Shown here one piece after another: positions 7,673 to 45,337 of a stretch of DNA of 64,000 nt. The stretch's first letter is position 1; each line of letters opens with the position of its first letter. The position numbers and the translations under genes are program-made. The stretch comes from Yuukianura sp. NJ FZ-2021 (Eukaryota): positions 992,001-1,056,000 of the forward strand of contig CM102285.1 in NCBI GenBank assembly GCA_046563655.1, read 5' to 3'. The notes beneath the pieces are model-generated. The model was not told the DNA's origin, searched no databases, and was given only the letters and a program-made list of their open reading frames with translations.

Positions 7673-7808
7673 CTTTTTGGAAAAGTCATTCGTAGAATTC
7701 TCTAAAAACTTATCCTTTGTAAAAACAAAGGATAAGACTTTTTTTTTGTATTAAATTCTAAAAATTTGAAAAAATGTTTGAAATTCTACGAATGACTTTT
7801 TCAAAAAG
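7673..7808. repeat. Nested inverted repeat upstream of the laccase gene
   Basis: Outer arms AAAAGTCATTCGTAGAATT / AATTCTACGAATGACTTTT; inner hairpin CTTATCCTTTGT-AAAA-ACAAAGGATAAG. Confidence 0.7.
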
Positions 7809-8135: not shown

Positions 8136-11100
8136 ATGTTCAGCGACATGAAGCGTCTTTTATTGTTAGTATTTTCTGCACTGCTCTTCGCTACTGCCCA
8201 AGGTCACCACTTTTCACATTTGGGCGTAGAAGTTTTGGACAACCTTGGTTTGGACGCCGTGACAACAGGAACTTCTGCTTTCTGGAAAAGTTGGTTTGAC
8301 GAATTCACTGAAAAGGCAGAAGATGGTCACGCTTGCAGAAGAGACGGGTTCTTCCCCAGTCCAGGGTCATGTCAAGCATTCTTCCGATGCTTCTGGGACA
8401 ACGCCACCTTGACCTTCAAGAAATACGACTTCACTTGCGCTCCAGGAACCTTGTTTGACCTCCATCTTGGAAAATGCGTACATGCGCAGAAGGCAAGGAC
8501 ACTACTGGCGACATGTCCCACCTCGGAAACCGAACACCGCGATAGGAAACCCGGGAATCATGGACAAAGAGAAGACTATTCTGCTGGATTTGGTAACAAA
8601 GTTTATAAAACCCTTGATTTTGAAATGTGGTATCAAAATTCTGAAATTTTGTACTCTTTTTTTTAAGAAACGGAACACTTTTGTATCTATGATCTGCGCA
8701 TGAGCTACATCAACGGCTCACCGGATGGAGTTCTAAAGAGAATCATTGGATTCAACGGCCAATTTCCTGGACCAGTTCTGCGATGTACCAGAAACAAGTG
8801 GATGATCATTCGTGTCAAAAACTGTATCCAAGACAACGACGAACCGACATCAATCCATTGGCACGGAATTGAACAAAACCTGTCGCCATTTTATGATGGA
8901 CCGGAGTCAATCACACAGTGTCCAATCATACGCAACACATCCATGATCTACAGATTTCAACTTTTCCAGTCTGGCACTTACTGGTAAATAACATTTCAAA
9001 AAATTATACAGTAAAACCTCTCATTGGGAAACCATTTTTCGGATTTCGGTAGTATTTTGAAAACATGACTATTGAGTACCGTAAAAGTTCACTTTTTGAG
9101 AGGATGCCAACTTTATATAAATTAGCTTGCAATGTACCTTGAAAGTTTACTGTAAACGCCTAAAACTTTTGAACCAAGAAAGCAACAAGAGGCAGTTCCC
9201 AAATGAGAAGTTTTACTGTAATCGAATATTTTTTTTTTATTTTAAATATTTGAGTTATAACTTGTACTACTCGGAAAGTTTAAAGTTGAGATGAAAAAAA
9301 CAACCAATCAGTGAGAGTTTTAAATTGAGAGGTTTTACTGTAATCTGATTTTTTAAACGAATCTTTTCCAAATTAACTTGCGGTGTACTCTGAATATTTA
9401 CGTTAGGTGCGAATAACTTTGAACCGGAACGAATCAGATCGTGTTTCCAAATGAGAGGTTGTACTGTAATCTGATTTTCTTTTAATTTTAGGTACCACTC
9501 ACATCATTCCTACCAGTACGTAGATGGCGCTTGGGGATTCCTGATAGTCAAAAACACTCCGAGAGAAGTATACCAAAACTCATACGACGATGAACGGCTC
9601 ATTTCTGTCAACGATTGGAATCATCTACCGGCTAAAAACCTCAGTATCACTTACTTAACTCAAGGAATCTTTCCCGCCACTGACTCATCTCTGATCAATG
9701 CCCGAGGAAGTTTCAACTGCTCCAACATTATTCAAGGTCAAGTATGTAACACCTCCCTCCAGGCTCCAGCAGTCATCAAGGTCACTCGAGGAAAAACATA
9801 CCGAATTCGGATTCTGAACGCTTCGGGAGCCCGAACTTACAATTTTTCAATCGACGGTCACAAAATGATTGCCATTGAAACAGACGGAGTCGACACCGTT
9901 CCGAGTCCGGCTTTTGATATCGTTTCGTGTCTGCCGGCACAACGGTACTCTCTTCTTGTGACGATGAACCAACCTGAATGTGAGTACTGGATTAGGATCA
10001 GCGGAGAAGGTCCGCCAGCCCCAGGACTTTTGGGCCTGGCTGTACTTCAGTACGAAAATTGTACTCCGGCAACCACTGGAACCGGAACGTCGACGATTGG
10101 TGTAGAAGATGTCGGTGCAGCAGCCAATCCGGATCTGCCTAAGCCGTCACCGGACTCTGGAGCTGCCCAAGGTCGGCCGCACGTCCAAGACATTCCGTGG
10201 ACAGACATTGCCAGTCAAGGCGGAATTCAACCAGCGACACCAGCACAGCTCCGGGCTTTTTTTCCGGACGAATTGCCCTGCAGTGATGAGATTGAAGCTG
10301 GACAGAGCGACAAGGTCGAACAAGTTCGCACTCCAACGACGTCTCCAGTTGACCCCAACACTGCCGTTGTTCTGGATCAGATGGATTGTCCACCTTATGA
10401 CATTGTCCCAGGAGAAGGAGATGCTCCGACGAATGTTGACCAAGAAGTTGTGATTCTGGCTGAGGACTGTCCCATTCCAGGAAGTCCATCTCGACAATGC
10501 ATGAATGGTCAACCATTTACTCCGGGGTCAACCAATAGTTTGCCACTTTTGTTCCAAGTCATTCGGGGACTGCCCATTAATGACTCGTATAGACCCATCT
10601 ATGCCCCGGTATTGGGCAAAGTCATCCGCATCATCGTCAACAACCACCACCAATTTCCTCACCCGGTAAATTTTGAAATTTTAGTTTTGAAATTTTGGAA
10701 TTTTATGAAAAATGTTTCTGACAGTGGCATTTGCATGGTCACACCTTCTGGGTGCTTGGTACTGGAGCTGCGTTGGCTGGAGACTTTGTTCCGGCTCGTG
10801 ACCTTCCGACCTTGAACTTTCACGGTGTCCGCCGTGACACGACTTTCACTTTCGGCAATTCCTGGGCCGTCATGACATTCATTACCGACAATCCTGGAAC
10901 TTGGTATGCCTAAATTACACAAAAACTGAATTTATCCATAAATTTTAATCGATTAATTACATACATATATTTATAATTTTCTACTTCTTTTTACTTCAGG
11001 TTCTTCCACTGTCACATCAACTGGGTATGTCAAATTTTTGAGTTGCGAATTCTAAGTTAAACTACAGTAAAACCTCGCATTCGGAAACTTTTGTTTTTGC

Positions 11101-11457
11101 TCTTTCACGAAACTAAAGAATAGTATAAAAGTTAAATTTTTTTGTCGAGGATTTACACAGATGAACTTGGCTTTACGCGCCTAAGGTGTGAAAAACTTTT
11201 GAACCGGTAAACCATCCAGAGCGAGTTTCCTAATGAGAGGTTTTACTGTAACCAACTAGTTGTATTTACTTTGATCAAATCTAAAAAAGTAGCTTAAATT
11301 CATATTTATTCAAATCTTTAAAATTCTTTCTTTTTAGCACTTGGAAGCTGGACTTGGCGCCACCTTCATTGAAGCTACCAATGTTTCGCAGGTAGTTTAT
11401 GCACGACCGCCACTTCAATCTTACCAAACTTGTCGTGCTGTGGGTGTCAACATCTAA
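8136..11457 (+). CDS. Secreted multicopper oxidase (laccase-like) with N-terminal chitin-binding peritrophin-A/CBM14 domain; 6 exons (8136 or 8148-8592, 8668-8983, 9492-10665, 10725-10903, 11000-11024, 11338-11457)
   Basis: Signal peptide MKRLLLLVFSALLFATAQG. Six-Cys CBM14 CRRDGFFPSPGSCQAFFRC...FTCAPGTLFDLHLGKCV...C. All four copper motifs appear after phase-consistent splicing: IHWHG, [28 protein letters not shown]. Confidence 0.93.
9009..9218. mobile_element. TA-flanked MITE (TIR CAGTAAAACCTCTCATT) in laccase intron 2, followed by two extra right-end units ending near 9340 and 9466
   Basis: TA|CAGTAAAACCTCTCATTGGGAAAC ... GTTCCCAAATGAGAAGTTTTACTG|TA; the TGAGAGGTT(T/G)TACTGTA end recurs at about 125-bp spacing. 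Confidence 0.75.
11065..11248. mobile_element. Second copy of the CAGTAAAACCTC MITE family, in laccase intron 5
   Basis: TA|CAGTAAAACCTCGCATTCGGAAACT ... AGTTTCCTAATGAGAGGTTTTACTG|TA; shares internal AAAACTTTTGAACC with 9009-9218. Confidence 0.78.
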
Positions 11458-12911: not shown

Positions 12912-14053
12912 TTACACCTGAGTTTGTTTTTGGCGTTTGGGTTTGCTAGCATATAAATCGCGACGAAACTCTTCTTCTATTTCAAGCGTTTCATACCGCA
13001 CTGGATCAGCCATTTGAATTTCTTTGACCTCTTCCGAATTTTCTACATAAAGTGAACTGTTTCCAAAATTTTGTTTACAGTAGTCGTGGATGTCGTAGTA
13101 GCCATTTTCTAAACAGAGATAACCAAAGATACGAGTAATTCCTGCTTCGCATATCCAGTCAATCCGGTCGTCGCATTGGAGAAAATATACTGGATCACAG
13201 TAGTGACTGTCACATCCAACACGTATCGTGTTCTCATTCCCTCTCAAGAATTCGCCGAATTTCTCCTCCGGAAGATGCGTAATACCCGGGTTTCGCTCCA
13301 GGTTCAGGTAGTTTCCTCTTCTGGAGAAAACAAATGCCGCATCGGATATGTTCGCCAAGGTCAAGCTGTTATTGTCAAGATAAACTGCCATCTCGTTCCT
13401 AAGCTCAACAAATGGGAGGTCGCCAATGGACTGTAGGCCAACCTGTCGAAGGACGATAGTGCGCAAGTTTTGGAGGTCGTTGTGAAACGCACGGGCAGGA
13501 AGATGGGACAGAGTATTACCATCCAAGTACAGTGTAGTAAGTGCTGTGAAGTTGCTGATTAGGTCAAAGATTTCTTCTGCATCTTGAAAGTCCATTTCAT
13601 TGATATCAAGCATGGTAGTGGTAGAGTAGGTGCCAGAGAAGGCGTCTGGGTGGATTTTGGTATACCTGTGATCCGCATAGAAATACAGACTCTGAATTTT
13701 CAGAGTAGAAACGGAATGGGCGGGAACCTTTGTAAAAATTTATGAAATTGAAATTAAAAATTCAAAATATTTGATTTTTTTAATTCAACCTTGTCGCCTG
13801 GGGAAATCACCATTGCGGGGTCTATAGAAACCATTTGCATGACTGCGGCTGTGTTGTTAAAAGCGTCTGAAATGGCATCGAATGTTGTCTGGATGTTCCA
13901 TGTGTTTAAGGCTACAGAGACACAGGAGATGGAAGGACCATAGCTACCGTTAGAACACCTACATTCCTCTGGGAATGTACCAGGACATTGCAGGACTTGC
14001 GCAGAACCTTGTAAGGTCAGAAGCAGTAGGCCGATCAAAGTTATTTGAAGCAT
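12912..14053 (-). CDS. Secreted LRR protein, tandem copy 1 (2 exons)
   Basis: Signal peptide MLQITLIGLLLLTLQGSAQ, Cys cap CPGTFPEECRC, intron before VPAHSVSTLK, about 6 LRRs, Cys-rich cap (CDDRIDWIC...YLC...DYC) and a charged helical tail. Confidence 0.88.
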
Positions 14054-14493
14054 GATGCTATTACGAGTTTGGAAAATTTCTTGTACGGTTGAACTGACAA
14101 TTTTGTAAGTTTTCGAGCTTTGTCTAGCAGTTTTCACTTCAATGTTTACACAAATGTAAAACGAACGTTAAAATGAATAGGACATCAAAGTGTTTGATAC
14201 GGTAAACTGTTCTCATATTGTGAACTGTTCTGACATTGTAAACTGATATTGATATTGTGAATCTTGTTGTTTCAGAGTGTTGATAAAAGTAAAAAAAAAC
14301 ATTACGATGCATTTTAATTTTAAAGTTTTATCGGATACTGCGTATAAAATTTGAGAACTATTATGATTAAGGATTCTCAAAACTTCGTTCTATTTTGGCG
14401 AAGGCTAAATCAATGAAAGTTCAAAGTTTAAATTCAAAATCAAAAACACGCACTGCATGCCTTTTTCAAGGAAAAAATTTGAGCAAAAATTTC

Positions 14494-14640
14494 CCTTGCA
14501 CTTTTCCATTAACTTTGAAATCAGCTTCAAATCAACTTCCAACGAAATCAACTTCGGTCGAAATCAAATCGAGAGAATGCGGCGATGGCGGTGCTGCAAA
14601 AGAAATTTTGGAACTTGTCAAATTCTAAACTCCCGTCGTC
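14494..14640 (-). pseudogene. Degenerate acylphosphatase exon-1 relic
   Basis: CCTTGCACTTTTCCATTAACTTTGAAATC and GGTGCTGCAAAAGAAATTTTGGAACT...AAATTC match 12278-12380; start codon lost and an internal insertion present. Confidence 0.6.
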
Positions 14641-14885
14641 CTTCCAATGCCAATCTCCGATTTTATGAAACACAAAAACGCTGAAAACGGCTGGACACGA
14701 TTATTCAAAGTGAGTTGGTTATAAAAATATGGGAAAATTTATTTCCTTGACAAAAATAATTTTTAAAAAAGTAGTAAAATCAATGCACATCTTTTTCGTC
14801 TTCATTCGGACATTTTTATTTCAACTTTGAATTTTGACAAGGCAAAAATCGAAATTTGAAAACAAAATTTGTTTTTTCGTTCCAT

Positions 14886-16032
14886 TTACGCGGGAATTTT
14901 ATTTTGGCGCCTGGATTTGCTAATAGTATCAAAAGAGCGGCGTTGAAACTCGTCTTCCACTCTGAGCGATTTATACTGCACATGATCAGCCATTTGAATT
15001 TTCTTGACATCCTCCATTGTCTCCCTATAGAGTGGACTGTTTCCAAACTTTTGTTCGCAGTAATCATAGATGTCGACGTAAGCAGGATCTGTGCAGAGGT
15101 AACCATTGATACGCTTGACTCCTGCTTCGCAGATCCAGTCAATCTTTTCGTCACATTCGAGAAGGTGTTTTGGAAAACAGAAGTCACATCCAACTCCAAG
15201 CGTGTTCCGGTTTCCTCTCAAGTAGTTCCCGAACTTCTCTTCCGGAAGATACGTAATACCCGGGTTTCGGTACAGATACATGAAGACTCCTGTTCTGGCG
15301 AAGGTAAATGCCGTATCGGATATGTTGGCCAAGGTCAAGTCGTTACCGTCCAGTGCAATGCTCTGTACATTTGGAAGTTGAGCAAATGCGAGGTCGCCGA
15401 TGGACTGTAAACCGGCGTCGCTAATGGTAATATATTCCAAGCTTTGAAGGTTAGCTCCAAAAGCATGCGCAGGAATTTGTGACAGAGTGATACCGGTTTC
15501 CAGCTTGAGTTGATACAGTACTTGGAAGTTGTTGAACAGCTGAAAGGCTTCTTCGCTGTCCTCAAAGTGCATATTGTAAATGGTGAGTATGTCCGTGGTA
15601 GAGTGTGAGCCAGAGAAAGCGTCTGGGTCAATCCGGGTATACTTGTTATACGCCAAAATAGTCAGACGCTGCGTTTTTAGAGTAGAAATTGAATGGGCGG
15701 GAACCTTTGAAACAAATTTAAAAGTTTAAAATTTAAAGATTGTGAATTTTTAAATTTTTTGGTTGAACCTTTTGTCCCGAAGTAATGACTCGTGCAAAGT
15801 CCATAGTTACAGAGGAGACGGCTTCGTCTGTGTTGTTAAAAGCGTCTGAAATTGCATCGAACGTTGCTTGGATATCCCATGTGCGCATGGGAATCGTGAC
15901 GCAGGAGATGACAGGGCCGTTGCTGTAGCTTAGGCATTCACATTCTGCTGGAAATGTGTCTGGACACAGTAGAACCTGCGCAGAAACTCCTAAAATCAGA
16001 AGCAGTAAACCAACAAAAATTCTCCAGAACAT
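14886..16032 (-). CDS. Secreted LRR protein, tandem copy 2
   Basis: ORFs 15733-16032 (signal peptide plus CPDTFPAECEC) and 14886-15656 join through VPAHSISTLK; same architecture as copy 1. Confidence 0.88.
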
Positions 16033-16310
16033 GGCGTTTTAACTTTTTAGCAGTTTTGTACGTCAGCTTTTCAGTTTTATTTTATTTTTTAGTATTTGTC
16101 TCACTCTCTTTTGTACCAATTTCAGGAATCCATTCAAATCTAATAGTGATTAGAAGTTAGAAGTGGTCAGTATCGTCAACTGTTTGAAAAACAACGTGAT
16201 TTCCGTTATTGTTAGAAATGACGTTGCAATAAAGATTACGAAATGTAGATAAAGTTTAGAAACCCAGTCTTTATAATAATCATCATTTTTAATAATTTAA
16301 AATAATCGAA

Positions 16311-16412
16311 ATGTTTTCTGTGAACTTCAAAATCGAATAAAACGAGAGACTGAGATGATGACGGTGCTGAAAATGCCATTTTGGAACCCGGCAAATTCAA
16401 AATTCCCACCGT
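16311..16412 (-). pseudogene. Acylphosphatase exon-1 relic (MAFSAPSSSQSLVLFDFEVHRK, then similarity stops)
   Basis: Close nucleotide match to 12285-12382 including the 5' flank; no donor site or downstream exons. Confidence 0.78.
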
Positions 16413-16478
16413 TTTTCACATTGAATTTTTACAAGCCAAAAATTAAACTGTGCACAACTTTTTGGTTCCAAATTTCAT

Positions 16479-17629
16479 TTACACGTAAATTTGGTTTTGG
16501 AGCTTGGCGTTGCTAATTGCAACAGAACGGCGACGAAACTCTTCTTCTATCTTAAGCGTATCATAACGCACACGATCAGCAATTTGAATTTTCTTGTCCT
16601 CTTCCAACTTTTCCCTACTAAGCGGACTGCGTCCAAACTTTTTCTGGCAATAGTCGTAGATATCGTCGTAACCCGTTTCACGGCAGCGGTATCCATAGAT
16701 ACGCGTAACGCCTGCGTTACAAATCCAGTCAATCCGGTCGTCACACTGGAGAAAGTAAGTTGGATCGCATTCGTTTTGATAGCCTGAACCAACATAGATC
16801 ATGTTCTCATTCCCTCTCACGAACTCCCCGAACTTCTCCTCCGGAAGATACGTAATACCCGGGTTTCGCTCCAGATTCAGATAAACTCCAGTTCTGGGAA
16901 AGACAAATGCCGTGTCGGAAATGTTCGTCAAAGTCAAATTGTTACCGTCAAGCATAACGTTCACAAGGTTTGGAAGTAGAGCAAACGGGAGACTGCCGAT
17001 GGACTGTAAGTCAGCGTCTCGAATGGAAATATACTCCAAGCTTTGGACGTCAAACGCATGCGCAGGAATTTCTGCCAAAGTGTGACCGTACAAGTACAGT
17101 CCACGCAGTACTTTGAAGTTGTTGAACAGCTCAAAGGCTTCTGTGGTGTTCTGGAAGTCCATATCGAAAATGTGGAGATGTTCCGTGGTAGAGTGAGTAC
17201 CAGAGAAGGCGTTTGGATCAATCCGTGTATATGTATAAGCCGCATAGAGATACAGATTCTGAGTTTTTAGAGTACGAACGGAATGGGCTGGAACCTTTGA
17301 AAAATTTTGAAATACCGATTAAAGATTTTTAAGTTTAATATTTTTTATATTTTTTTTTATTAAACCTCTTGGGCCGGGCTTGTGACGAGTCTAGGGTTTA
17401 TAGTTGCAAAATAGACGGCTTCGTCTGTGTTGTTAAAAGCATCTGAAACTGCGTCGAACGTTGCCTGAATGTCCCATGTCTCCATGGAGATCGTGATGCA
17501 TGTGATATCAGCGCCCATGCTGGACTCATCACAAGAACATTCTTCTGGAAATGTGTCTGGACACTGCAGGATCTGCGCAGAAACTCCAAGAACAACGAGC
17601 AGTAGACCAAGTAGAATTGTGCGGAGCAT
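16479..17629 (-). CDS. Secreted LRR protein, tandem copy 3
   Basis: MLRTILLGLLLVVLGVSAQILQCPDTFPEECSC...; exon 2 runs from VPAHSVRTLK to QNQIYV*. Confidence 0.88.
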
Positions 17630-18493
17630 GACGTTTTTCAAAATTAAGGATTACAGTAGGCCACAGAATTTTACTGTATTTTGTAACAGCGTTTCAGTTT
17701 GTTCTCTATTTTCCAGGCTTTTCTTCCACACTTTTTGTGCCGATTTTTACGCAGAACTGCACTTAAATCTAAAAGTGATTACAAGTTAGAAGCGTTTAGT
17801 ATTGTCAACCTTTCGGGAAAAAAACGTTTGTTTTCAGTTATTAGTAGAGATAAAGTTGTACGTAAGATTACCGATATAGATAAAGTTCAAAAAGCAGTTT
17901 TTTCCAGTAACACATTTAATTATTCATCAAAATCAATTTTTCTCCAAACTCTTCATGTGGAATATACAAAAAAAAACACAATTTTAAAGTAGCTTTTTAA
18001 AGTAGCACAATTTCTAATTACCAAATGGATCAAACCGGAAGAGATTAATATAAAATGTGATTTCAAAGTGAGAGACTGGGCCAATGTTACACTTCAAACG
18101 AAAGAAGATAAACGTTAAAGTGTCAAATTACTCAAATGTTGATTTCCTGAATTTAGAAAATATCAAGGCTAAGACTATGGAGTTTTCCAACTTTTGTTCT
18201 AGATTGGCGAAGTCTAAGTCAGCAAAAATCACTATGAGAAATCCGAATTGTAGGAAATGAAAATCGTTAGCTGGATTTTTATTTTCATTTCTGCATTTCC
18301 TTCCAAAAATTCACTACTTTTCTGGTAAACGGAATTCTGAATTTTCACTTTGTTGTTGTTGATAAAAACAGGCCCGAGAAAATCAAGTTGCGACGTGACG
18401 TGAATGGAAATTCATGTTGAGATGATATTTTTATTTTGAATTTTGACAACCGAAAAGTTAAAGTTTTGAACAAATTTTGATTTTCCTTAACAT

Positions 18494-19638
18494 TCATGCC
18501 CTAACTTGATTCTGGGGCTTGGCTTTGTTAATAGCATAAGAGCGGCGACGAAACTCATCTTCTATCTTACGCTCTTCGTACCGCAGACGATCCGCCTTTT
18601 GAATTTTCTTGATCTCTTCCACATTCTCCCTATAGAGTGGACTGTTGCCAAACTTTTGTTCGCAGTAGTCGTAGATGTCGGTGTGCCCAATTTCTACACA
18701 GCGGTAACCATAGATACGGGTAATACCTGCTTCGCAGATCCAGTCAATCCGCTCGTCGCATTGGAGAAAATACTTTAGATCGCAACTGTCTTCCCGTCCA
18801 TGTCCTACAAAGATGGAGTTTTCATTCCCTTTCAAGAAGTTCCCGAATTTCCTCTCCGGAAGATGCGTAATACCCGGGTTTGCCTCAAGATTCAGAGAAA
18901 TTCCTGTACTGGAGAAGGTAAATGCTTTATCGGATATATTGGCCAACGACAAGTTGTTGCCGTCAAGTTGAATGTTCGAAAGGTTTCGCAGTTCAACAAA
19001 TGGGAGATAGCCGATGGAATATAAGCCAGAATAACGAATGCTGATACTTGTCAAGTTTTGGAGGTCATTGGTAAACGCATGTGCAGGAATTTGGGACAGA
19101 GTACCAGTGTACAAGGACAGGTCACGCAGTACTTTGAAGTTGTTGAACAGGTCAAATGCATCTTCGACATCTTGGAAGTCCATGTTATAAATAGCAAGGT
19201 CGGTAGTGGTAGAGTGGGTGCCAGAGAATGCATCTGGGTCAATCCGGGTATACTTGTGAGCCGTAAAGAAGCTCAGTATCTGAGTTTTTAGAGTAGAAAT
19301 GGAATGGGCGGGAACCTTTAAAAGAAATTTTTAAGTACCAATTTAATATTTCAAAATTTTATTTTTTGTTAAACCTCTTGGGCCGAGGATGCGACGCTGA
19401 AAGTTTCTATTCGAACATGGTAGACGAGTTCGTTTGTAGTGTTGAAGGCGTCTGAAATTGCATCGAACGTCGCCTGCATGTCCCATGTGTCCATGGGGAT
19501 ATAAACGCAGGCGATTTGTGGGCCATCACCGGTGTCAGAGCAATAACATTCTTCTGGAAAGGGGTATGGACACTGTAGGACCTGCGCTGAAACTCCTAGG
19601 ATCCCAAGCAGTGCACCAACAAAAGTGGTCCAGAGCAT
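18494..19638 (-). CDS. Secreted LRR protein, tandem copy 4
   Basis: MLWTTFVGALLGILGVSAQVLQCPYPFPEECYC...; exon 2 runs from VPAHSISTLK to QNQVRA*. Confidence 0.88.
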
Positions 19639-35407: not shown

Positions 35408-36558
35408 TTACAGGTGAATTTGGTTTTGGCGATTGGCTTTGCTAGTAGCATAAGAACGGCGACGAAACTTTTCAGTCTTAGCCGTTTCGTACCGCAGACG
35501 ATCAGCCATCTGAATTTTCTTGACCTCCTCCGAATTTTCTCCATAAAGTGGACTGTTCCCAAACTTTTGTTCGCAGTAGCCATAGATATCGCCGTAACCA
35601 ATTTCTAAGCAGTTGTAACCATAGATACGTGTCACTCCTGCGTTACAGATCCAGTCAATCCGGTCGTCACATTGGAGAAAGTAAGTTGGATCGCTGTCGT
35701 TTAGGTGGCCAGATCCAACAAAGATCAGGTTCTTATTCTCTCTGAGGAAGTTCCCGAACTTCTCCTCCGAAAGATGCGTAATACCCGGGTTTCGCTCCAG
35801 ATTCAGACGGATCTCGGTTCTGGAGAAGGTAAATGCAGTGTCGGATATGTTGGCCAACGTCAAGTTGTTACCGTCAAGAGTAACGTACGCAAGGTTTGGA
35901 AGTTTAACAAATGGGAGATAGCCGATGGAATGTAACCCGGCGTTCCGAATGTCCACATTGTTCACGCTTTGAGCGGTGTTGTCAAACGCATGCGCAGGAA
36001 TTTGGGGCAGAATGGTATCATACAAGTTCAGTCCACGCAGTACTTGGAAGTTGTTGAACAGGTCAAAGGCTTCTTCGGTGTCGCGGAATTTCATATAGTT
36101 AATAGTGAGATACTGCGTGGTAGAGTGAGTGCCAGAGAAGGCGGCTGGGTCAATCCGGGTATACGTGTCAGCCGCCCACAACTCCAGAAACTCAGTTTTT
36201 AGTGTCGAAACGGAATGGGCGGGAACCTTTGTAAGAAATTTGACATACAAATTAAAAATCTTAAAATTTTGAAATATTTTGCTCTGAATTAAACCTCTTC
36301 GCCAGGTGAAGTGACCCTGCTGGTAGTTATAAAAACACTAAACACGACTGCATCTGTGTTGTTGAAAGCTTCTGAAATTGCATCGAACGTTGTCTGAATG
36401 TCCCATGTGTCCATGGAGATGATAACGCATTGGATTACGGGACCCAAGTTATCGTCGCTACACATACACTCTGGTGGAAATGTACCAGGGCATCGCAGGA
36501 CCTGCGCAGAACCTGTTAAGATCAGGAGCAGTATACCGATCAAAGTTATTCTAGACAT
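35408..36558 (-). CDS. Secreted LRR protein, tandem copy 5
   Basis: MSRITLIGILLLILTGSAQVLRCPGTFPPECMC...; exon 2 (within ORF 35408-36250) runs from VPAHSVSTLK to QNQIHL*. Confidence 0.88.
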
Positions 36559-37199
36559 GACGCTTTTACGAGTTTGTATGCTCTACTTGTAGGATTGACC
36601 TGAAAACGTTTGTAAGCATTTCAACTGTCCCTAACAGTTTATGTTGTAATTTTTGCCCAAAAGTATAACGTACACAAAACTGATTAGAACATTAAAGTGT
36701 CTGATATTGTCAACTTTTCGAAAACACAAAAACGTTTAATGATTACAGCCTTGTCATTGCAAAGTGTTGATAAAAGTTTAAATAAAATCGCGATGCATTT
36801 TAATCTAAGGTAGATAACGTGAGTCATATTGGAGAAATCACATTCTACGAGTTTTTGCATGCGCAATATTAATAACTATTAATTAATACTAATTGATAAG
36901 TAAAAATTCAAAGTATCAGAGCGGAAGTTTTTTTTTCTTTAAATTTCTTGCTTGTCCCAAGCCTAGTTGTCAATTTTCAACTGTAGATTTCCCGATTTCA
37001 GAAAGTATCTAAATTAGTAAATGAAGTGGCGAACTCTAAATCAGCGGAGTTGAACGTAATATCAAAATAAAAAACGGTTTTGACTTATTATTCGAAACAA
37101 ACGACTTCGAAAAATTAATTAGTTCGGCTTCCTACGGAAACTTTTATTATGACAAGCCAGAAATAAAAAATTTGAGCACCTTTTGGTTTTCATTTATGC

Positions 37200-38369
37200 T
37201 TAAATTGTATTTTGGCGCTTGGCTTTGTGCGTATCATAAGAACGGCGACGAAACTCTTCTTCTATCTTCAGCTTTTGGAACCGCAGACGATCAGCAGTTT
37301 GAATTTTCTCGACCTCTTCCAAATTCTTTCCATAAAGTGGACTGTTTCCAAACTTTTGTTCGCAGTAGTCGTAGATGTCGTGGTAAGCTTTTTCGTGGCA
37401 GCGGTAATCATAGATACGTGTAATTCCTGCTTCGCAGATCCAGTCAACCCGGTCGTCGCAGTAGAGAAAGGAACCTGGATCACACTCGTGGTCTTCAGTT
37501 CCAACAAAGATCGGGTTTCGGTTTCCTCTCAAGAAGTTCCCGAACTTCTCCTCCGGAAGGTACGTAATACCACGGTTACGCTGCAGATTGAGGAGGACAT
37601 CTCTTCTTTTGGAGAAGGTAAATGCCGTATCGGAAATGTTGTCCAAGGTGAACTGGTTACCCTCAAGGTTAATGTCCGTAAGGTTTGAAAGTTCAGCAAA
37701 TGCTAGATCGCCGATGGACTGTACGCCAGCGTCTTGAATTATAATTTTTGTCAAGTTTGGGAGGTCTTTGTAGAACGCATGCGCAGGAATATGGGACAGA
37801 GTGACACCGCCATCCAAGCCCAGGAAACGCAGTACTTGGAAGTTGTTGATCATCTCAAATGCTTCTTCGGCGTCTTCGAAGTCCAATTCACTGATCTCAA
37901 GTACGGTAGTGGTAGAGTAAGTGCCAGAGAAGGCGTCTGGGTCAACCCGGGTATACGTGTGACTCACCCAGAGGCGCAGGTTCTGAATTTTTAGAGTCGA
38001 AATGGAATGGGCGGGAATCTTTGTAAGAAAATGTGAAATAAAAATTAAGAATTAAATTTTTTGAATTTGAATTTTAAATTTTGAATTTTTTTTTCTGATT
38101 TATACCTCTTCGCCAGGTGAAATGACCCTTTGCGGGTCAATCTGAACCTGATTCATGACTGCGTCTGAGTTGTTAAAAGCTTCTGAAATTGCATCGAACG
38201 TTGCTTGAATGTCCCATGTGTCGATGTTGCTGGTAACGCAGTAGATGTAAGGGAGGGTACTGTAAGAATCGCAAGAACATTCTTCTGGAAAGGTGTCTGG
38301 ACACTTCAGCTCTTGCGCAGAAACTCCTAGGATCAGAAGCAGTAGACCAAGGAAAATGGACCGGAACAT
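37200..38369 (-). CDS. Secreted LRR protein, tandem copy 6
   Basis: MFRSIFLGLLLLILGVSAQELKCPDTFPEECSC...; exon 2 runs from IPAHSISTLK to RQNTI*. Confidence 0.88.
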
Positions 38370-39497: not shown

Positions 39498-39703
39498 TGG
39501 TCCTTCGAACCGGATCGACCCAGCCATCTGACGAGCAGTGAAGCCGAGGAAGACATCCCACTTGGACATCAGTCATCACCTTTTTACAAGGTCTATGTGA
39601 GCACCGAGCCAGCTCCAAAAAACCTACAGGGCTCTGGAAAAGGTGATATCGTCCCAAACATATCATTTCGTTTCAAATCTAATCTCAGTACCCGTTTTTA
39701 GCT

Positions 39704-42700
39704 ATGGCCGAACGCCAGACCCTACCGGATGAGACGACAGATCAGGAAGTAGATGCAGACGTCAGCCAGTCTTCAGGGACTTTGCCCTTTGTCGCCGGAG
39801 AGGAGGAAGACACCCGCAGCGTCTCTTCGCACATCAGCCACACGTCGGTGAAGTCAGTCATCAGGCGCAAAGAGCGAGAACTGAAGATGGCAGCACGAAT
39901 CAAGATCTTGGAAGAAGAAAGAAAGGCTATCCAAGCAGAAGCCGAACGAGAAAAGAAGATGAGAGAAGCAGAAGCCGAACAAGAAAGGAAACTCGCCGCA
40001 ATAGTTACCGAGCAAGAGAAGATGCTTATCGATATGAAACTTCAGAAGGAGCTAGAAGATCTGGCCGACGAACAGGAAGATTTGTTGGAGGAGATGGGGC
40101 TCCTAGAGCCCACCAAACCATTGATCAGCCGTCCAGTGATCCAGCAGAGGAACACTCAGGATTGGGTCAATGCCGTTCCAGCAGATCCCCCGTCACCAGT
40201 ACCTTCACGCCCCCCATCGAATCACTCAAACAAAGCCTTTTCGCCACCAGTATCAGTTCACCAGTCAGAAGTGAGATCCGAAATTGCCCAGGCCGGAGAA
40301 GCAATGGCCGCAGCCTTCAGTAAGGCTTTGGAACAGATGAAACCGGTAATCACTCCTCCAACAGTAGTCACTCCTCCACCGGTGGGCACTTCCTCTACTT
40401 CCGAAAAAGTGTTGGCAAGAAAGGCTTACGGGAGTGATCTCCCTCATTTTAGTGGTCGACCAGACGAATGGCGAGTCTTTCATGCAGCGTATACCCAATC
40501 TACCGAGAAATGTGAATTTTCCAACTACGAGAATCTTCATCGTCTCCGTCGATGTTTGAAGGGTGAAGCCTACAAAGAAGTTGAATACCTGCTTGAGAAT
40601 CCCGAGAACGTGCCGGAGATCATGAAGACATTAACGCTCAGGTTTGGACAACAACGACATATCATCAGACATCTCTTGTCAAAATTGCAGACAGTACCTA
40701 TTCTCAAAGAAAACGATTGGGAGTCCCTCATCGCCTTCGGAAGACACGTTCGGAACTTAATGCAGACACTCAGAGGATTTCAGTCAGAGAAAATTCTTGA
40801 CAATTTTCAGACGCTGGAAGACTTGACGAAGAAGTTGCCACCCAGCCTTCGAATGGAATGGGCAAAGGAATCAGGAAATAGTTTGGATTCATCTTTGGAG
40901 AAGTTTGAGCTGTGGATCAGGGAGAAAGTGGTACACGCGTACACTATCTCCACACCGAAGTTTAAGGAAGAGAAGTCAAGAAGTGACAAGCAGACCACCA
41001 GATCAGTACTCGCAACAGAGCATGGAACCGTTCCTCAGGCTACTCCAACCACGTCTCAGACTTCGCATCAGTCACAGCAGCAGCAATCCACTCCGACTAC
41101 GTCTCAAGCTTCGCCCCAGCAACAACCGCAGCAGTCTACCCCGAAAGTCACCCGTTGCCAACATTGCCAGACAGACGGACATCGCATCCAGGGTTGCGAA
41201 CAATTCAAGAAAGCCAGTTTGGAAGCACGACTCAAGACAGTCAAGGACAGGAAACTTTGCTATGGATGTCTCAATTTTGGTCACGGAACAAAGGACTGCC
41301 GCTCTAAAAAGAAGTGCACAGTCGGGGACTGTAGCTACTTCCACCATCAGCTTCTACATCGGGAAACAGCTCCTGCTACTAACCACGTCGCACCCCTACA
41401 GCTTCACGTCTCCAGTCAAATCACCTATCAGGTTCTTCCCGTCACTCTCAGGAGCCCAAAGGCAGAAGTCTCTACTTACGCTCTGTTAGATTTGGGATCC
41501 GGGTACACCCTACTGGATGAAGAACTTGCCGACCAACTCCAACTCCACGGAAAGAAACAATCGCTAGGTTACTCTACAATTAGCCACAGTCAGGGGTCAG
41601 AAATCCCTTCACGCTCAGTGTCTCTCAGTATCGTCAACCCCACCAATGGAGATTCATTCGATGTAACCAATGTACGTACCTTCCCATCTCTTAATCTTCG
41701 TGCCGGCACCGTGACTCCGTCTCAGCTAGCAGAATGGAAACATCTCGACAGATTGCCTCTTCCATTATACTCAGATGTCCGGCCGAAGATCCTGATTGGA
41801 ATTCCACACCGTAAACTAATTTCACCAATTAAGATCGTCAAAGGTAGTGAGGATGGTCCGGAGGCGTGGAAGACGCAACTCGGTTGGATGGTCTACGGGG
41901 AGATGGCCTTTCCGACAGAATGCAAGACAGCCAACTACATCAACGGAGTCTACAGTCTCACAGAAGCAGATCCACTACATCAGTTGGTTAAACAATACTT
42001 CAGCACCGAAGAGTTTGGCGTCAGACCCACCACCTCTTCTCCTTACACGAAGGATGAGCAGAAGGCTGAAGAGATTGCCAAGAAGACCCTACGCAGAGTT
42101 GGAGACAGATTCGAGATCGGGCTACTATGGAAGGACGAGACAGTAACGCTGCCTGAGAGCAAAACGATGGCCCTCCAGCGACTCTCTTCCATCGAGCGGA
42201 AACTCGACAAGGATCCAATCTACGCCAACAAGTACTGCGAGAATGTCCAGCACTACATTGACTCAGGATACCTACAGAAGATGTCGAAGGAAGAAGCAGA
42301 GACGGTGACTCCGCGGACTTGGTTCCTTCCTCACTTTGGAGTCAGCAAGGCTAGTAAGCCAGAAAAACTCAGACTAGTTTTTGATGCCGCAGCCACCAGC
42401 CACGGAGTTAGTCTTAATTCAGCATTGTACAGCGGACCAGACATTCTCAGACCCCTACCATCAGTTCTTTGCAAGTTCAGAGAGAGGAAGATTGCCATCA
42501 CAGCAGACATCAAGGAAATGTTTCACCAAGTCAGGATGCGTGAAGAAGATCAACTTAGTCAGAGAATCCTTTGGAGAGGAATGGATCGAATCAACCCCCC
42601 AGATCAGTACAAGATGGCAGTCATGACATTTGGAGCAACCTGTTCGCCTTACTGTGCACAACTTGTCAAAAGAGAAAACGCCATGCAGTTTGCCGAGAGA

Positions 42701-45337
42701 TTTCCAAGAGCAGTAGACGCAATCGTCGCTCGTCACTACGTGGACGATTTGTTGGATTCATGTGACACTACAGCAAAAGCCTTCATCCACTTCCAGGAAG
42801 TTTTCAAGATTCAGAAACATGGAGGCTTCCATCTCTGCAATTGGGCTTCTAACGATCCTACCTTCATCCATCAGATTCCCGAAGATCTTCGCTCCAAGTC
42901 TCAGAAGTCATTTGGAAGCAAAGACACCATTGCCAGTGAGCGGATTCTCGGACTCGAGTGGAACCCCGGAGAGGACTTCTTCACATTCTCTACCAGCTTC
43001 TTCAAAGTCAGGAAGGAGATCCTCAACGGACAGGAATCGCCGACGAAGAGAGAAGCCTTGTCTGTGGTAATGTCAGTTTTCGATCCACTGGGTTTCGCAG
43101 CAGTCCTCACAGTAAAGGCGAAGATCCTGTTGCAGTTAGCTTGGCGCGCCGGAATCGGATGGGACGACATCTTACCAGAATCACTGTGGACAAAATGGAG
43201 GGAATGGATTTCAGATCTTCAGAGAATTTCTTCATTCAAGGTACCCAGATGTTACTCCCTACATTTCTCCAGAGCAAAGGAAGTTCAACTTCACGTTTTC
43301 TGCGATGCCAGCGAGTTGGCCTACTCTTCAGTCGCCTACTTCAGATTGGAATCCGGTGAGACAGCCTTCGTAGCAGCCAAAACTAGAGTTACCCCCCTCA
43401 AAGCCATGACCATTCCTCGGTACGAGCTACAAGCAGCCTTAATGGGAGCCAGACTTTCTCATTCAGTGAAGGAGTGGCACAGCATCCAGCCTACGAAGTG
43501 CTTCTTCTGGACAGACAGTCGTACCGTCATGTGCTGGCTCTCCATGGATTCGTGTCGCCTAAAGCAGTTCGTTTCAAACAGAGTAGGTGAGATCCTGGAT
43601 TTAACTCAGAAGACAGACTGGAACTGGATATCTACACACGAGAACGTTGCCGATGAAGCTACCAGAGACCGAGATCCCTGCGATTTCTCTCCCAACAGTC
43701 GTTGGCTGAATGGACCAGCCTTCCTGAAGCTATCACAAGATCAGTGGCCCATCGGACAAACCCAAGAACTGAAGGAAGATCCAGAGATCTTAGAAATCAA
43801 GAAGGAGTTTTGTGGACATGTGGAAAACTTGAAAAAGACAGCGGGTGAGTGTCCTTTCGACATCTCAAGATTCTCCTCATGGACACGCCTCATCAGAAGC
43901 ACTGCCTACCTTCTACGTGCAGTCAGATATGGATTTCGTGGATGCAGTCACCCCTATCCGCCATTCGCAATTGCTGAGATCTTCGAGTCAGAGACCTTTT
44001 GGTGGAGATGGGCTCAAGCGGAATCCTACCCAGCAGTCGTCCTTGCCTTTCGTATGAAAGATTACTCCAGAGCAGCCAAATATCAGCTACAGACACCACT
44101 ACGAGGACTGTCAATTTACATGGATGACACCGGTGTACTTCGCCTCAAAGGACGTGTGCAAGCCGATGTCCCAATTGGAAACCTGGAGCGAAATCCAGTA
44201 ATACTCCACCCGAAACATCCGTATACCATCTTGATGATCAGACACTACCACGAGAAGGCGGGACACCAGAACAAAGACACAGTCGTCAACGACCTCAAAC
44301 AACGATTTTGCATCACAGGTCTACGAGAAGCAGTTAAGAAAGCCTGGTACAACTGTCAACGTTGCAAGAATGATCGTGCTCGTCCAATTCCTCCAGAGAT
44401 GGCTCCACTACCGTTGGCGAGACTTGACAGTTACCAGCGACCTTTCACACGAACAGGCGTTGACTACTTTGGACCTATGGAAGTGACTATTGGAAGAAGA
44501 CATGAGAAGCGGTACGGTGCGCTGTTCACTTGCTTGGTTACCCGTGCAGTTCACCTGGAATTAGCCGGATCTCTCTCCACCGACAGCTTCATCATGGCTC
44601 TCCGTCGCTTTATTGCTCGCAGAGGAAACCCAGCCCACATTTACTCAGACAACGGTACCAACTTTGTCGGCGCCAACAATGAACTTCAGAAAGCTATCAA
44701 AGAATTGGATCAGGAAAAGATTGGTGTCGAGATGAACGTCAGGTCAATTGAATGGCATTTCAACCCGCCTTACGCACCACACATGGGAGGAAGTTGGGAG
44801 AGGATGGTACAATCAGTGAAGAGAGCTCTCCATGCAGTACTAAAGGAAAGAACACCCCGGGAAGAGACTCTACTAACCCTCCTAACAGAAGCCGAGAATA
44901 CGGTCAATGGACACCCGCTAACCTATGTTAACTCAGACGTGGAATCAGAAGAGGTCCTGACGCCAAACCACTTCCTCATTGGCACTCCAAACGCATACCA
45001 ACCACCAGGAGCCTTTGACGACGGAGACCTCATTCCTGGGAAGCAGTGGAAACTTGCGATGAGACTAGCCGATCATTTCTGGGGACGCTGGATCCGTGAG
45101 TTCCTCCCCACCCTGACCAACCGCCAGAAGTGGATTGAGAAGGCTACCCCCATCAAGGTCGGAGACGTGGTTCTCATCGTGGACGATTCCCTTCCCCGCA
45201 ATTGCTGGCTGAAAGGCATCGTCGAGGAGGTCCCAGAAGCAAAGGATGGACAAGTACGTTGGGCCAACGTCAAAACAGCAGCTGGACACTACAAGAGACC
45301 AGCCACCAAGTTGTGCGTCCTCAAGGTTACACAGTAG
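39704..45337 (+). CDS. BEL/Pao Gag-Pol polyprotein (1877 aa, uninterrupted)
   Basis: Gag LPHFSGRPDEW; three Cys/His knuckles (CQHC...H...C, CYGC...H...C, C...C...HHQLLH); protease ALLDLGS; RT ADIKEMF...YVDD; RNase H FCDAS; integrase GVDYFGP, SDNGTNF, GGSWERMV; order PR-RT-RH-IN. Confidence 0.97.
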   Translation: MAERQTLPDETTDQEVDADVSQSSGTLPFVAGEEEDTRSVSSHISHTSVKSVIRRKERELKMAARIKILEEERKAIQAEAEREKKMREAEAEQERKLAAIVTEQEKMLIDMKLQKELEDLADEQEDLLEEMGLLEPTKPLISRPVIQQRNTQDWVNAVPADPPSPVPSRPPSNHSNKAFSPPVSVHQSEVRSEIAQAGEAMAAAFSKALEQMKPVITPPTVVTPPPVGTSSTSEKVLARKAYGSDLPHFSGRPDEWRVFHAAYTQSTEKCEFSNYENLHRLRRCLKGEAYKEVEYLLENPENVPEIMKTLTLRFGQQRHIIRHLLSKLQTVPILKENDWESLIAFGRHVRNLMQTLRGFQSEKILDNFQTLEDLTKKLPPSLRMEWAKESGNSLDSSLEKFELWIREKVVHAYTISTPKFKEEKSRSDKQTTRSVLATEHGTVPQATPTTSQTSHQSQQQQSTPTTSQASPQQQPQQSTPKVTRCQHCQTDGHRIQGCEQFKKASLEARLKTVKDRKLCYGCLNFGHGTKDCRSKKKCTVGDCSYFHHQLLHRETAPATNHVAPLQLHVSSQITYQVLPVTLRSPKAEVSTYALLDLGSGYTLLDEELADQLQLHGKKQSLGYSTISHSQGSEIPSRSVSLSIVNPTNGDSFDVTNVRTFPSLNLRAGTVTPSQLAEWKHLDRLPLPLYSDVRPKILIGIPHRKLISPIKIVKGSEDGPEAWKTQLGWMVYGEMAFPTECKTANYINGVYSLTEADPLHQLVKQYFSTEEFGVRPTTSSPYTKDEQKAEEIAKKTLRRVGDRFEIGLLWKDETVTLPESKTMALQRLSSIERKLDKDPIYANKYCENVQHYIDSGYLQKMSKEEAETVTPRTWFLPHFGVSKASKPEKLRLVFDAAATSHGVSLNSALYSGPDILRPLPSVLCKFRERKIAITADIKEMFHQVRMREEDQLSQRILWRGMDRINPPDQYKMAVMTFGATCSPYCAQLVKRENAMQFAERFPRAVDAIVARHYVDDLLDSCDTTAKAFIHFQEVFKIQKHGGFHLCNWASNDPTFIHQIPEDLRSKSQKSFGSKDTIASERILGLEWNPGEDFFTFSTSFFKVRKEILNGQESPTKREALSVVMSVFDPLGFAAVLTVKAKILLQLAWRAGIGWDDILPESLWTKWREWISDLQRISSFKVPRCYSLHFSRAKEVQLHVFCDASELAYSSVAYFRLESGETAFVAAKTRVTPLKAMTIPRYELQAALMGARLSHSVKEWHSIQPTKCFFWTDSRTVMCWLSMDSCRLKQFVSNRVGEILDLTQKTDWNWISTHENVADEATRDRDPCDFSPNSRWLNGPAFLKLSQDQWPIGQTQELKEDPEILEIKKEFCGHVENLKKTAGECPFDISRFSSWTRLIRSTAYLLRAVRYGFRGCSHPYPPFAIAEIFESETFWWRWAQAESYPAVVLAFRMKDYSRAAKYQLQTPLRGLSIYMDDTGVLRLKGRVQADVPIGNLERNPVILHPKHPYTILMIRHYHEKAGHQNKDTVVNDLKQRFCITGLREAVKKAWYNCQRCKNDRARPIPPEMAPLPLARLDSYQRPFTRTGVDYFGPMEVTIGRRHEKRYGALFTCLVTRAVHLELAGSLSTDSFIMALRRFIARRGNPAHIYSDNGTNFVGANNELQKAIKELDQEKIGVEMNVRSIEWHFNPPYAPHMGGSWERMVQSVKRALHAVLKERTPREETLLTLLTEAENTVNGHPLTYVNSDVESEEVLTPNHFLIGTPNAYQPPGAFDDGDLIPGKQWKLAMRLADHFWGRWIREFLPTLTNRQKWIEKATPIKVGDVVLIVDDSLPRNCWLKGIVEEVPEAKDGQVRWANVKTAAGHYKRPATKLCVLKVTQ

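Follow-up and report, generated by a model that had tools for sequence, protein, structure and literature searches.

Positions 8136 to 11457 (+ strand) of a 64,000-nucleotide (nt) stretch of DNA from Yuukianura sp. NJ FZ-2021 (GenBank assembly GCA_046563655.1, contig CM102285.1, positions 992,001 to 1,056,000; hereafter, the window) hold one six-exon gene that joins a chitin-binding CBM14 domain to a multicopper oxidase (MCO). We conclude, with a rough probability of 0.68, that this animal gene encodes a secreted, chitin-anchored, laccase-like MCO, the oxidase part of which is probably fungus-derived. The predicted signal peptide would export the protein from the cell, and the N-terminal CBM14 would tether the enzyme to chitin, be it in the animal's own cuticle, the peritrophic matrix, the egg envelope, or an ingested fungal wall. 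The type 1 (T1) copper, with its non-coordinating axial Leu, would take single electrons from phenolic, catechol, or arylamine substrates, and these would travel via a Cys-His path to the trinuclear cluster, where O2 would be reduced to water. That the exons are joined in this way in vivo, that the protein is secreted and binds chitin, and that the oxidase was transferred are inferences from sequence, as are its substrate class and tissue.

Fungal-type laccases in springtails have already been published as transfers (PMC5490193, from the part of that article available to us); the CBM14 fusion is the feature for which we found no earlier description. Full-text literature searches, whose results consisted of titles and the opening lines of abstracts, returned carbohydrate-active enzyme (CAZyme) inventories and peritrophin papers and no description of a CBM14-MCO protein, and no full-length protein of this kind was found in the protein libraries searched. 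The available portions of PMC11543626, PMC13449613, and PMC4987106 contained no relevant passage on fungal-type MCOs of springtails.

Gene structure and domain order

We read the gene from the DNA and its stop-to-stop frames and spliced it by coordinates, which gave a coding sequence (CDS) of 2271 nt, a protein of 756 amino acids (aa), and a TAA stop codon at 11455-11457. All five introns are of the GT..AG type (75, 508, 59, 96, and 313 nt) and have a GC content of 29%, versus 49% for the CDS. Exon 1 (8136-8592, 457 nt, + strand, as for all exons) carries the start codon, the signal peptide, an N-terminal extension, the CBM14 domain, and a linker, and it ends in phase 1 at a GTAACA donor. Intron 1 (8593-8667, 75 nt, phase 1, + strand) separates CBM14 and linker from the oxidase; the G at 8592 and the AA at 8668-8669 together form a Glu codon, and read-through is ruled out because there is an in-frame TAA at 8664-8666. 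The in-phase join that a first-pass annotation of this DNA had drawn between the two parts across this intron is thus exact.

The remaining exons encode the oxidase. Exon 2 (8668-8983) covers domain 1 (Cu-oxidase_3), including HWHG and the start of WYHSH, and its phase-2 donor lies inside the Trp codon. Exon 3 (9492-10665) supplies the end of domain 1 (YHSH), domain 2 (Cu-oxidase), an insert, and the first half of domain 3, and exon 4 (10725-10903) adds the bulk of domain 3 (Cu-oxidase_2), the copper motif WHLHGH included. Exon 5 (11000-11024) is a 25-nt microexon with AG/GT flanks that completes a Trp codon and encodes FFHCHINW, which includes the T1 Cys and type 3 (T3) His ligands; the intron before it is obligatory because of a stop codon at 10911-10913. 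Following a phase-0 intron, exon 6 (11338-11457) encodes HLEAGL (T1 His718 and axial Leu723) and a tail ending in CRAVGVNI, followed by the stop codon.

Every string that had been quoted at first pass is present in the spliced protein. The three cupredoxin domains stand in MCO order, and all pass the Pfam gathering scores in the exon translations (Cu-oxidase_3 in exon 2, E = 6.7e-25; Cu-oxidase in exon 3, 8.5e-28; Cu-oxidase_2 in exon 4, 1.3e-10). All four copper motifs are whole, namely, HWHG (216), WYHSH (258), HPWHLHGH (648), and HCHINWH (712), and the spliced protein has the full set of 10 His and 1 Cys copper ligands. The T1 axial residue, claimed to be Leu at first pass, is indeed Leu723, a position fixed by the motif that starts at residue 712. 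The protein stops 33 aa past the T1 motif, with no hydrophobic stretch and no transmembrane segment.

Between domains 2 and 3 lies an insert of ∼90 to 100 aa (exon-3 residues ∼190 to 280; 10060-10332, + strand) with a high content of Pro, Thr, Ser, and acidic residues and with the conserved blocks QGRP..DIPW and TPTTSPVDP. The insert is present in the clade of the window gene, takes another form in the Orchesella proteins P0009 and P0018 (see below), and was not found in the fungal rows of the exon-3 alignment. An AlphaFold model of exon 3 had a predicted local distance difference test score (pLDDT) of 70 overall, with 85 to 95 over domain 2 and 44 to 62 over the insert; the model confirms the predicted domain 2, and its insert part is unreliable.

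At the N terminus, residues 1 to 23 (MFSDMKRLLLLVFSALLFATAQG; 8136-8204, + strand) form a predicted signal peptide, which we called by our own reading of the translation rather than with a predictor, on the basis of a basic n-region, a hydrophobic core, and small residues before the cut. A similar leader begins the O. cincta protein P0009 and the products of L003 and L004, two of 39 loci that we obtained by scanning metagenome contigs with exon 3; four of these loci (L001 to L004) are 56 to 60% identical to the query, and three of the four have upstream sequence. The CBM14 domain (also peritrophin-A or ChtBD2; residues 67 to 127; 8334-8516, + strand) was recognized by Pfam PF01607 (E = 3.2e-10; 40.4 bits against a cut-off of 22.1; residues 67 to 119, profile positions 1 to 49 of 53) and by six Cys at positions 67, 79, 85, 101, 114, and 127 (spacing 11-5-15-12-12), which are kept in all three CBM14-bearing genes (window, L003, and L004). 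The C3-C4 (15) and C5-C6 (12) gaps exceed what we take to be the consensus. By language-model features, which give a lead only, the nearest Atlas clusters of this part are arthropod CBM_14 families (score, 0.87). An AlphaFold model of exon 1, built from a four-row alignment, had a mean pLDDT of 46, too poor for fold or disulfide pairing. From its sequence, the domain is a predicted chitin tether of the enzyme.

Relatives and origin of the oxidase

The oxidase had been described at first pass as fungal-looking, and this description held: outside springtails its nearest named relatives are fungal, and a termite laccase scores far lower. A search with exon 3 gave 16 matches, among which the best named ones were from Orchesella, followed by fungi. 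These comprised eight exon-sized metagenome fragments (39 to 60% identity), the Orchesella cincta protein “Laccase-2” (P0009; E = 1.4e-43) plus one protein from Orchesella dallaii, a 552-aa JGI metagenome protein labelled “iron transport multicopper oxidase” (P0010), and five fungal proteins (Savitreella, Zychaea, and Mucor). HMMER against 1.84 billion representatives returned 1761 matches at E ≤1e-3 and 11 at E ≤1e-30, and 25 hand-picked members of the best 150 (the best full-length matches, N-terminally extended ones, and a few others) were looked up. Of these 25, 16 could be tied to a named organism, namely, 12 fungi (Homolaphlyctis, Zopfochytrium, Geranomyces, Chytriomyces, Entophlyctis, Dentiscutata, Cetraspora, Jimgerdemannia, Orbilia, Blastobotrys, Myxozyma, and Chiua), three springtails (O. 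dallaii, O. cincta, and Folsomia candida), and one bdelloid rotifer (Didymodactylos). A search for longer homologues (686 to 2000 aa) yielded no match at E ≤0.001 among 7135 candidates, a negative result that carries little weight.

Solved structures ranked similarly. In a Protein Data Bank (PDB) search, exon 3 matched basidiomycete laccases at 91 bits (E = 1e-24), Fet3 at 43 bits (3.5e-10), and termite BP76 at 38 bits (8e-9), and exon 2 gave the same order (best fungal laccase, 62 bits; BP76, 32 bits). Foldseek did so as well, with BP76 (8R7I) at rank 49, under fungal, plant, and Fet3 chains; the axial residue of the window protein, as noted above, is Leu. A profile search placed Orchesella first, followed by fungal Fet3-like proteins, plants, an echinoderm, and bacteria. 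As a further lead only, the nearest Atlas clusters of the oxidase part were from Ascomycota in five of the six rows shown (0.92 to 0.96), and none was arthropod.

The nearest annotated proteins are O. cincta P0009 (681 aa) and its O. dallaii orthologue, P0018 (694 aa), with 39% and 36% identity over the oxidase. Both resemble the window protein in being secreted MCOs of three domains, with a long insert separating domain 2 from domain 3, a non-coordinating axial residue (Phe and Leu, respectively), and no Fet3 iron triad. Unlike it, they have neither CBM14 nor an N-terminal extension, the oxidase follows directly after the leader, and the insert differs in sequence. The name “Laccase-2” of P0009 is an automatic label and provides no evidence of orthology to insect Lac2. 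We also observed that another O. dallaii protein, P0017 (1152 aa), contains two complete oxidase units in tandem, with two matches per Pfam domain. In the tree described below, each half groups most closely with the other; the protein may be a genuine tandem fusion, or annotation may have merged two adjacent genes.

We inferred a tree from 68 hand-picked rows and 538 columns using the “quick” mode of IQ-TREE and LG+C20+F+G4 by posterior mean site frequency (PMSF). The rows included the window oxidase minus its N-terminal 150 aa, models of L002 to L004, eight of nine named full-length springtail proteins entered whole (P0018 among them), and the two halves of P0017; Folsomia P0283 was left out as a near-duplicate of P0156. 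The remainder were 27 named fungal proteins, five plant laccases, a protein from the echinoderm Antedon, the rotifer protein, three bacterial proteins, and 16 unnamed metagenome or ENA proteins; SKU5-like proteins of plants, the majority of bacterial CopA proteins, and every short fragment were excluded. By the Shimodaira-Hasegawa-like approximate likelihood ratio test (SH-aLRT), the window gene formed a clade with L003 and L004 (96), which was joined by L002 (100) and then by P0009 and P0018, the Orchesella “Laccase-2” type (98). All springtail rows, together with the window gene and three unnamed proteins, made up an 18-row clade (99) that sits in a 48-row clade (97) in which the other members are fungal or unnamed. 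The nearest sister of the springtail clade was the Fet3 clade, at an SH-aLRT of 82 only.

Two observations concern other animal sequences. A match from the rotifer Didymodactylos carnosus that ranked among the top ones (P0170/P0321, annotated as “Laccase” and containing HCHIDWHLEAGL) falls outside the springtail-fungal clade and may have been acquired separately, bdelloids being known for gene transfer. Four ENA proteins with HCHIEVHQLEGM (P0057, P0059, P0067, and P0083) were considered as invertebrate MCOs; the look-up gave no confirmation, and Antedon is the only known animal in that part of the tree.

We consider horizontal transfer from a fungus to be the better explanation for the oxidase, probable but not proven. 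It is favored because the family has a narrow distribution among animals and because three Folsomia laccases are listed as transfers from a mycorrhizal fungus in the accessible part of the published genome paper (PMC5490193). Under this explanation, the oxidase would have been taken from a fungus before the Orchesella/Folsomia and window lineages split. It would later have acquired host-type introns and codon composition and lost the Fet3 iron residues, and CBM14 would have been gained (or kept) in the window branch. The oxidase family is common to Orchesella and Folsomia; therefore, the acquisition, if there was one, is old and not specific to the window gene.

Several points weigh against a fungal source. 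BP76, the only arthropod laccase with a solved structure, was the sole direct arthropod comparator, and the search profile, built with three fungal rows, leans fungal. Tree support consists of SH-aLRT values from a quick search without bootstrap, and no canonical hexapod Lac2/MCO1 sequence was among the rows. Among the rows covered, the maximum-likelihood tree groups the springtail clade with fungal or unnamed proteins (97), and the nesting inside arthropod laccases that had been named at first pass as refuting was not seen. In approximately unbiased (AU) tests, holding the 30 fungal and unnamed rows together without the springtails raised the log-likelihood (lnL) by 0.86 (p = 0.496), and joining Antedon plus three unnamed ENA proteins to the springtail clade lowered it by 23.2 (p-AU = 0.089), a grouping not rejected at 0.05. 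Both groups were named after the tree had been seen. The first-pass annotation had left the choice between a transferred and an anciently divergent oxidase open; the fungal-type family stands, and the two p values (0.496 and 0.089) reject neither origin. Based on these sequences, the springtail family would be either nested in or sister to the fungal group of Fet3 and laccase-ferroxidase (LAC-FOX) type, and a link to the other animal MCO cluster appears disfavored.

The strongest rival to transfer is that the oxidase is an ancient opisthokont gene that springtails retained and other animals lost, which we regard as unlikely but deserving of serious weight. Both AU results just given leave room for retention, as do the host-type introns and composition, which bear no trace of recent arrival. 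Against it, the only animals among the 16 named matches of the 25 looked up are springtails and a bdelloid rotifer, the rotifer row lies outside the 48-row clade, and retention would require many independent losses across animals. In addition, the free tree places the springtail clade within the fungal group, and the genome paper, in the part cited above, scored the three Folsomia laccases as foreign.

Iron-site residues and likely chemistry

The motifs of the oxidase had been called typical of fungal laccases and Fet3-like oxidases. We found that the oxidase is nearer to the Fet3/laccase-ferroxidase group than to strict laccases, and it is without the ferroxidase residues. In the consulted part of PMC9880977, the acidic Fe(II)-binding residues of Fet3 are given as E185, D283, and D409, and members of the LAC-FOX group are described as retaining at least one of the E185 and D409 equivalents, with D409 in most. 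The same portion (see also the available part of PMC7345259) reports that a fungal laccase-ferroxidase without the triad oxidized phenols and arylamines and acted on Fe(II) only once all three residues had been restored. We mapped the Fet3 numbering through Sporothrix Fet3 (P0036) aligned to 1ZPU, with an offset of 21 that was checked at H413 and H489; the D283 column is in a poorly aligned loop and is the weakest of the three.

The equivalents of E185, D283, and D409 in the window protein are F, P, and H. The triad reads E/D/D in all four Fet3-clade rows, E185 and D409 are kept in all four chytrid, Glomeromycota, and Mucoromycota rows shown, and no equivalent acidic residue is found in any of the 11 collembolan-clade rows shown. 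The window protein thus lacks the acidic triad of a Fet3-type ferroxidase and, with F and H, also lacks the E185 or D409 equivalent of a LAC-FOX enzyme. A C-terminal membrane anchor is likewise absent, and a survey of 17 frames, confined to the window rather than covering the genome at large, turned up no iron permease family. The sequence combines an axial Leu and the full copper ligands with the absence of a membrane anchor and of the iron triad, and it is therefore most likely to encode a soluble laccase-like oxidase.

A role as a Fet3-type ferroxidase in iron handling would fit the NCBI names of Folsomia P0156/P0283 and O. cincta P0219 (“iron transport multicopper oxidase FET3/fetC”), the position of the Fet3 clade as nearest named sister in the tree (SH-aLRT, 82), and a C-terminal C..GVNI motif like that of Fet3-like fungal rows. 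We nevertheless judge it improbable, given F/P/H at the iron site, the triad kept in 0 of the 11 collembolan-clade rows shown, a protein that ends 33 aa past the T1 motif without an anchor, the behavior of the triad-less enzyme in PMC9880977 (in the part cited above), and the absence of a permease partner from the scanned frames. As labels for the springtail relatives, FET3 and fetC probably mislead, and the loss of the triad across the springtail family, which predicts laccase-like chemistry, argues against them.

Comparison with characterized systems places the laccase-like reading in context. Fet3p of Saccharomyces cerevisiae (1ZPU) and LAC-FOX enzymes share with the window protein the three-cupredoxin fold and the axial Leu and form the nearest named clade outside springtails; early-diverging fungal members of this type are the best-scoring named matches outside springtails among those looked up. 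Unlike them, the window protein has no E185/D283/D409 and no membrane anchor and carries CBM14 and the ∼100-aa insert. Basidiomycete laccases (6H5Y, 3T6V, 2QT6, and 1GYC) are the best matches among solved structures (exon 3, E = 1e-24; Foldseek, 1e-17) and, with an axial Leu or Phe and no iron triad, are probably the closest functional analogue. They differ in that they are only 21 to 25% identical in Foldseek alignments and lack both a chitin-binding module and the insert that separates domain 2 from domain 3; in the tree, the two basidiomycete rows branch basally in the 48-row clade, away from the window gene. Insect MCO1 and Lac2 have an axial Met and a Cys-rich N terminus. Insect laccases, exemplified by termite BP76 (8R7I), are likewise secreted arthropod MCOs, but their similarity to the window protein is much weaker. 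Lac2 works on catechols within a chitin-protein matrix, according to the accessible part of PMC13449613.

Conservation of the chitin-binding exon and genomic setting

Metagenome relatives indicate that exon 1 belongs to the oxidase gene. Exon 2 lacks its own leader, and the first Met that it encodes sits within DLRMSY; relatives of the oxidase, such as O. cincta P0009, have their signal peptide directly before the equivalent residues. The L004 model is complete (752 aa), has 59% identity to the window protein, and shows the same order of signal peptide, CBM14, and oxidase and the same 12-residue copper motif (712-723 in the window protein). Its first two introns (phases 1 and 2) and its phase-0 intron after HCHINW coincide with those of the window gene. 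L003, which is partial on a 2.4-kb contig, has the same first three exons and first two introns. These two CBM14-bearing relatives are 57 to 59% identical to the window protein, their CBM_14 matches are well scored (L003, 1.5e-10 and 41.5 bits; L004, 1.6e-8 and 35.0 bits), and their six Cys align.

The third informative relative, L002 (2985-5412), is 51% identical and keeps the flanks EYWKNF... and ...NTFGY and the splice point, and it has extra introns upstream of the flank exon and inside the region equivalent to exon 3. The position and phase of intron 1 are common to L002, L003, and L004, as is the phase-2 donor of exon 2. In L002 and L004, no intron separates the microexon residues from the exon before, and both genes share with the window gene the phase-0 intron that follows HCHINW. 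Overall, the junction is kept in all three informative relatives and the fusion in two of them. L002 itself has no CBM14, and this counts against the proposed tether, the anchor being dispensable in some copies; judging from the sequences, either the anchor was lost there or it was inserted in the sister lineage. A further point against the main reading is that QCPI of domain 1 reads QYPI (Cys to Tyr) in L003 (681-996), where neighboring residues differ too; L003 may be a decaying copy or contain an assembly error on its short contig. The flanking frames of the window had no tblastn match in the 39 metagenome loci at E ≤1e-4, and upstream of L004 there was no frame of ≥90 aa with an obvious gene.

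It is very improbable that the fusion is a gene-model artefact in which the CBM14 exon would be part of another, small peritrophin-like gene and the true start of the oxidase would lie elsewhere. Such an artefact would agree with the existence in L002 of an oxidase of the same clade without CBM14 and with the absence of a full-length fusion protein from the libraries searched. It conflicts with an exon 1 that is open up to its GT donor and has a phase that fits exon 2 exactly, with the lack of a leader on the oxidase exon, and with the recurrence of junction, phase, and flanks (..G-F/Y | E-T/G-..-F-C-I/V-Y-D-L-R) in L002, L003, and L004. Even the L002 exon without CBM14 still supplies the flanks and splices at the same point.

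The suggestion that the oxidase gained a host chitin anchor was upheld: CBM14 is present in two of the three close metagenome relatives and was found neither in the Orchesella sister proteins nor in any of 22 further proteins scanned (21 N-terminally extended HMMER matches and the two-unit P0017). One of the 22, F. candida P0156 (OXA44997.1), and its RefSeq counterpart P0283 (XP_021961465.1) have a Lectin_C domain ahead of the oxidase (Pfam, 1.4e-8 and 1.2e-10) and are annotated only as “FET3/fetC.” Like the window protein, they fall in the springtail clade, have an N-terminal glycan-binding module, and lack the triad; unlike it, they belong to another springtail subclade, have an axial Met (HCHIDWHNLSGM), carry a module that is not CBM14, and are 32% identical. 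Two springtail lineages thus bear two different animal glycan-binding modules, CBM14 and a C-type lectin, on one oxidase family.

The gene is an intact nuclear gene resident in an animal genome, and its nearest homologues suggest that this soil arthropod is most likely a springtail or a near ally. In a survey of the 17 long frames of the window, the recognizable neighbors were an F-box frame, leucine-rich-repeat (LRR) frames, a C2H2 zinc-finger frame, a weak V-set match, and a BEL/Pao retroelement. GC content at third codon positions (GC3) is 0.48 for the gene, alike in the CBM14 and oxidase parts, and 0.40 to 0.53 in neighboring frames. Fungal contamination or misassembly, to which the fungal best matches outside springtails might point, is a negligible prospect against five short AT-rich introns and a microexon, an arthropod-type CBM14 that shares an open exon with the leader, animal-type neighbors on both sides in one contiguous window, a GC3 equal to theirs, and orthologous families in three published springtail genomes.

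Retention of the chitin anchor across at least three diverged genes points to a chitin matrix as the likely site of action. Together with the lectin-bearing Folsomia relative, the window gene suggests that fusion with binding domains of the host adapted a probably foreign enzyme to host structures, and it offers a testable case of how transferred genes become integrated. A broader proposal, which we advance tentatively and with some doubt, is that springtails domesticated fungus-derived oxidases by repeated fusion to host glycan-binding modules (CBM14 here and the C-type lectin in Folsomia), with the CBM14 form, its iron site lost, acting as a matrix-bound laccase. If so, the enzyme might tan cuticle or peritrophic matrix, an independent, non-insect route to laccase-mediated chitin hardening; such tanning would bear on how chitin hardens in non-insect hexapods. 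Alternatively, the CBM14 form might oxidize phenolics or melanin on ingested fungal walls.

The two longest introns contain copies of a 20-nt repeat core similar to AATGAGAGGTTTTACTGTAA, with four copies, one inverted, in intron 2 (9006-9469, no strand assigned) and two copies in inverted orientation in intron 5 (11062-11251, no strand assigned). These six matches (≤3 mismatches) are all that the 64-kb window contains, versus 0 expected from shuffles, which suggests small insertions resembling miniature inverted-repeat transposable elements (MITEs) that enlarged introns 2 and 5. Farther downstream, 39683-45337 (+ strand) holds an unbroken 1884-aa frame of a BEL/Pao-type long terminal repeat (LTR) retroelement, with DUF1759, RVT_1, Peptidase_A17, an integrase zinc domain, and DUF5641, and it looks like a young copy. 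Six frames of ∼275 to 310 aa with LRR_8 or LRR_5 matches (12912-19330 and 35408-38051, − strand) make up a tandem LRR family, and four of them are consecutive just downstream of the oxidase gene. On the other side, a perfect hairpin with a 12-bp stem (CTTATCCTTTGT AAAA ACAAAGGATAAG; 7709-7736) precedes the start codon by ∼400 nt; the surrounding DNA is AT-rich and contains related direct repeats.

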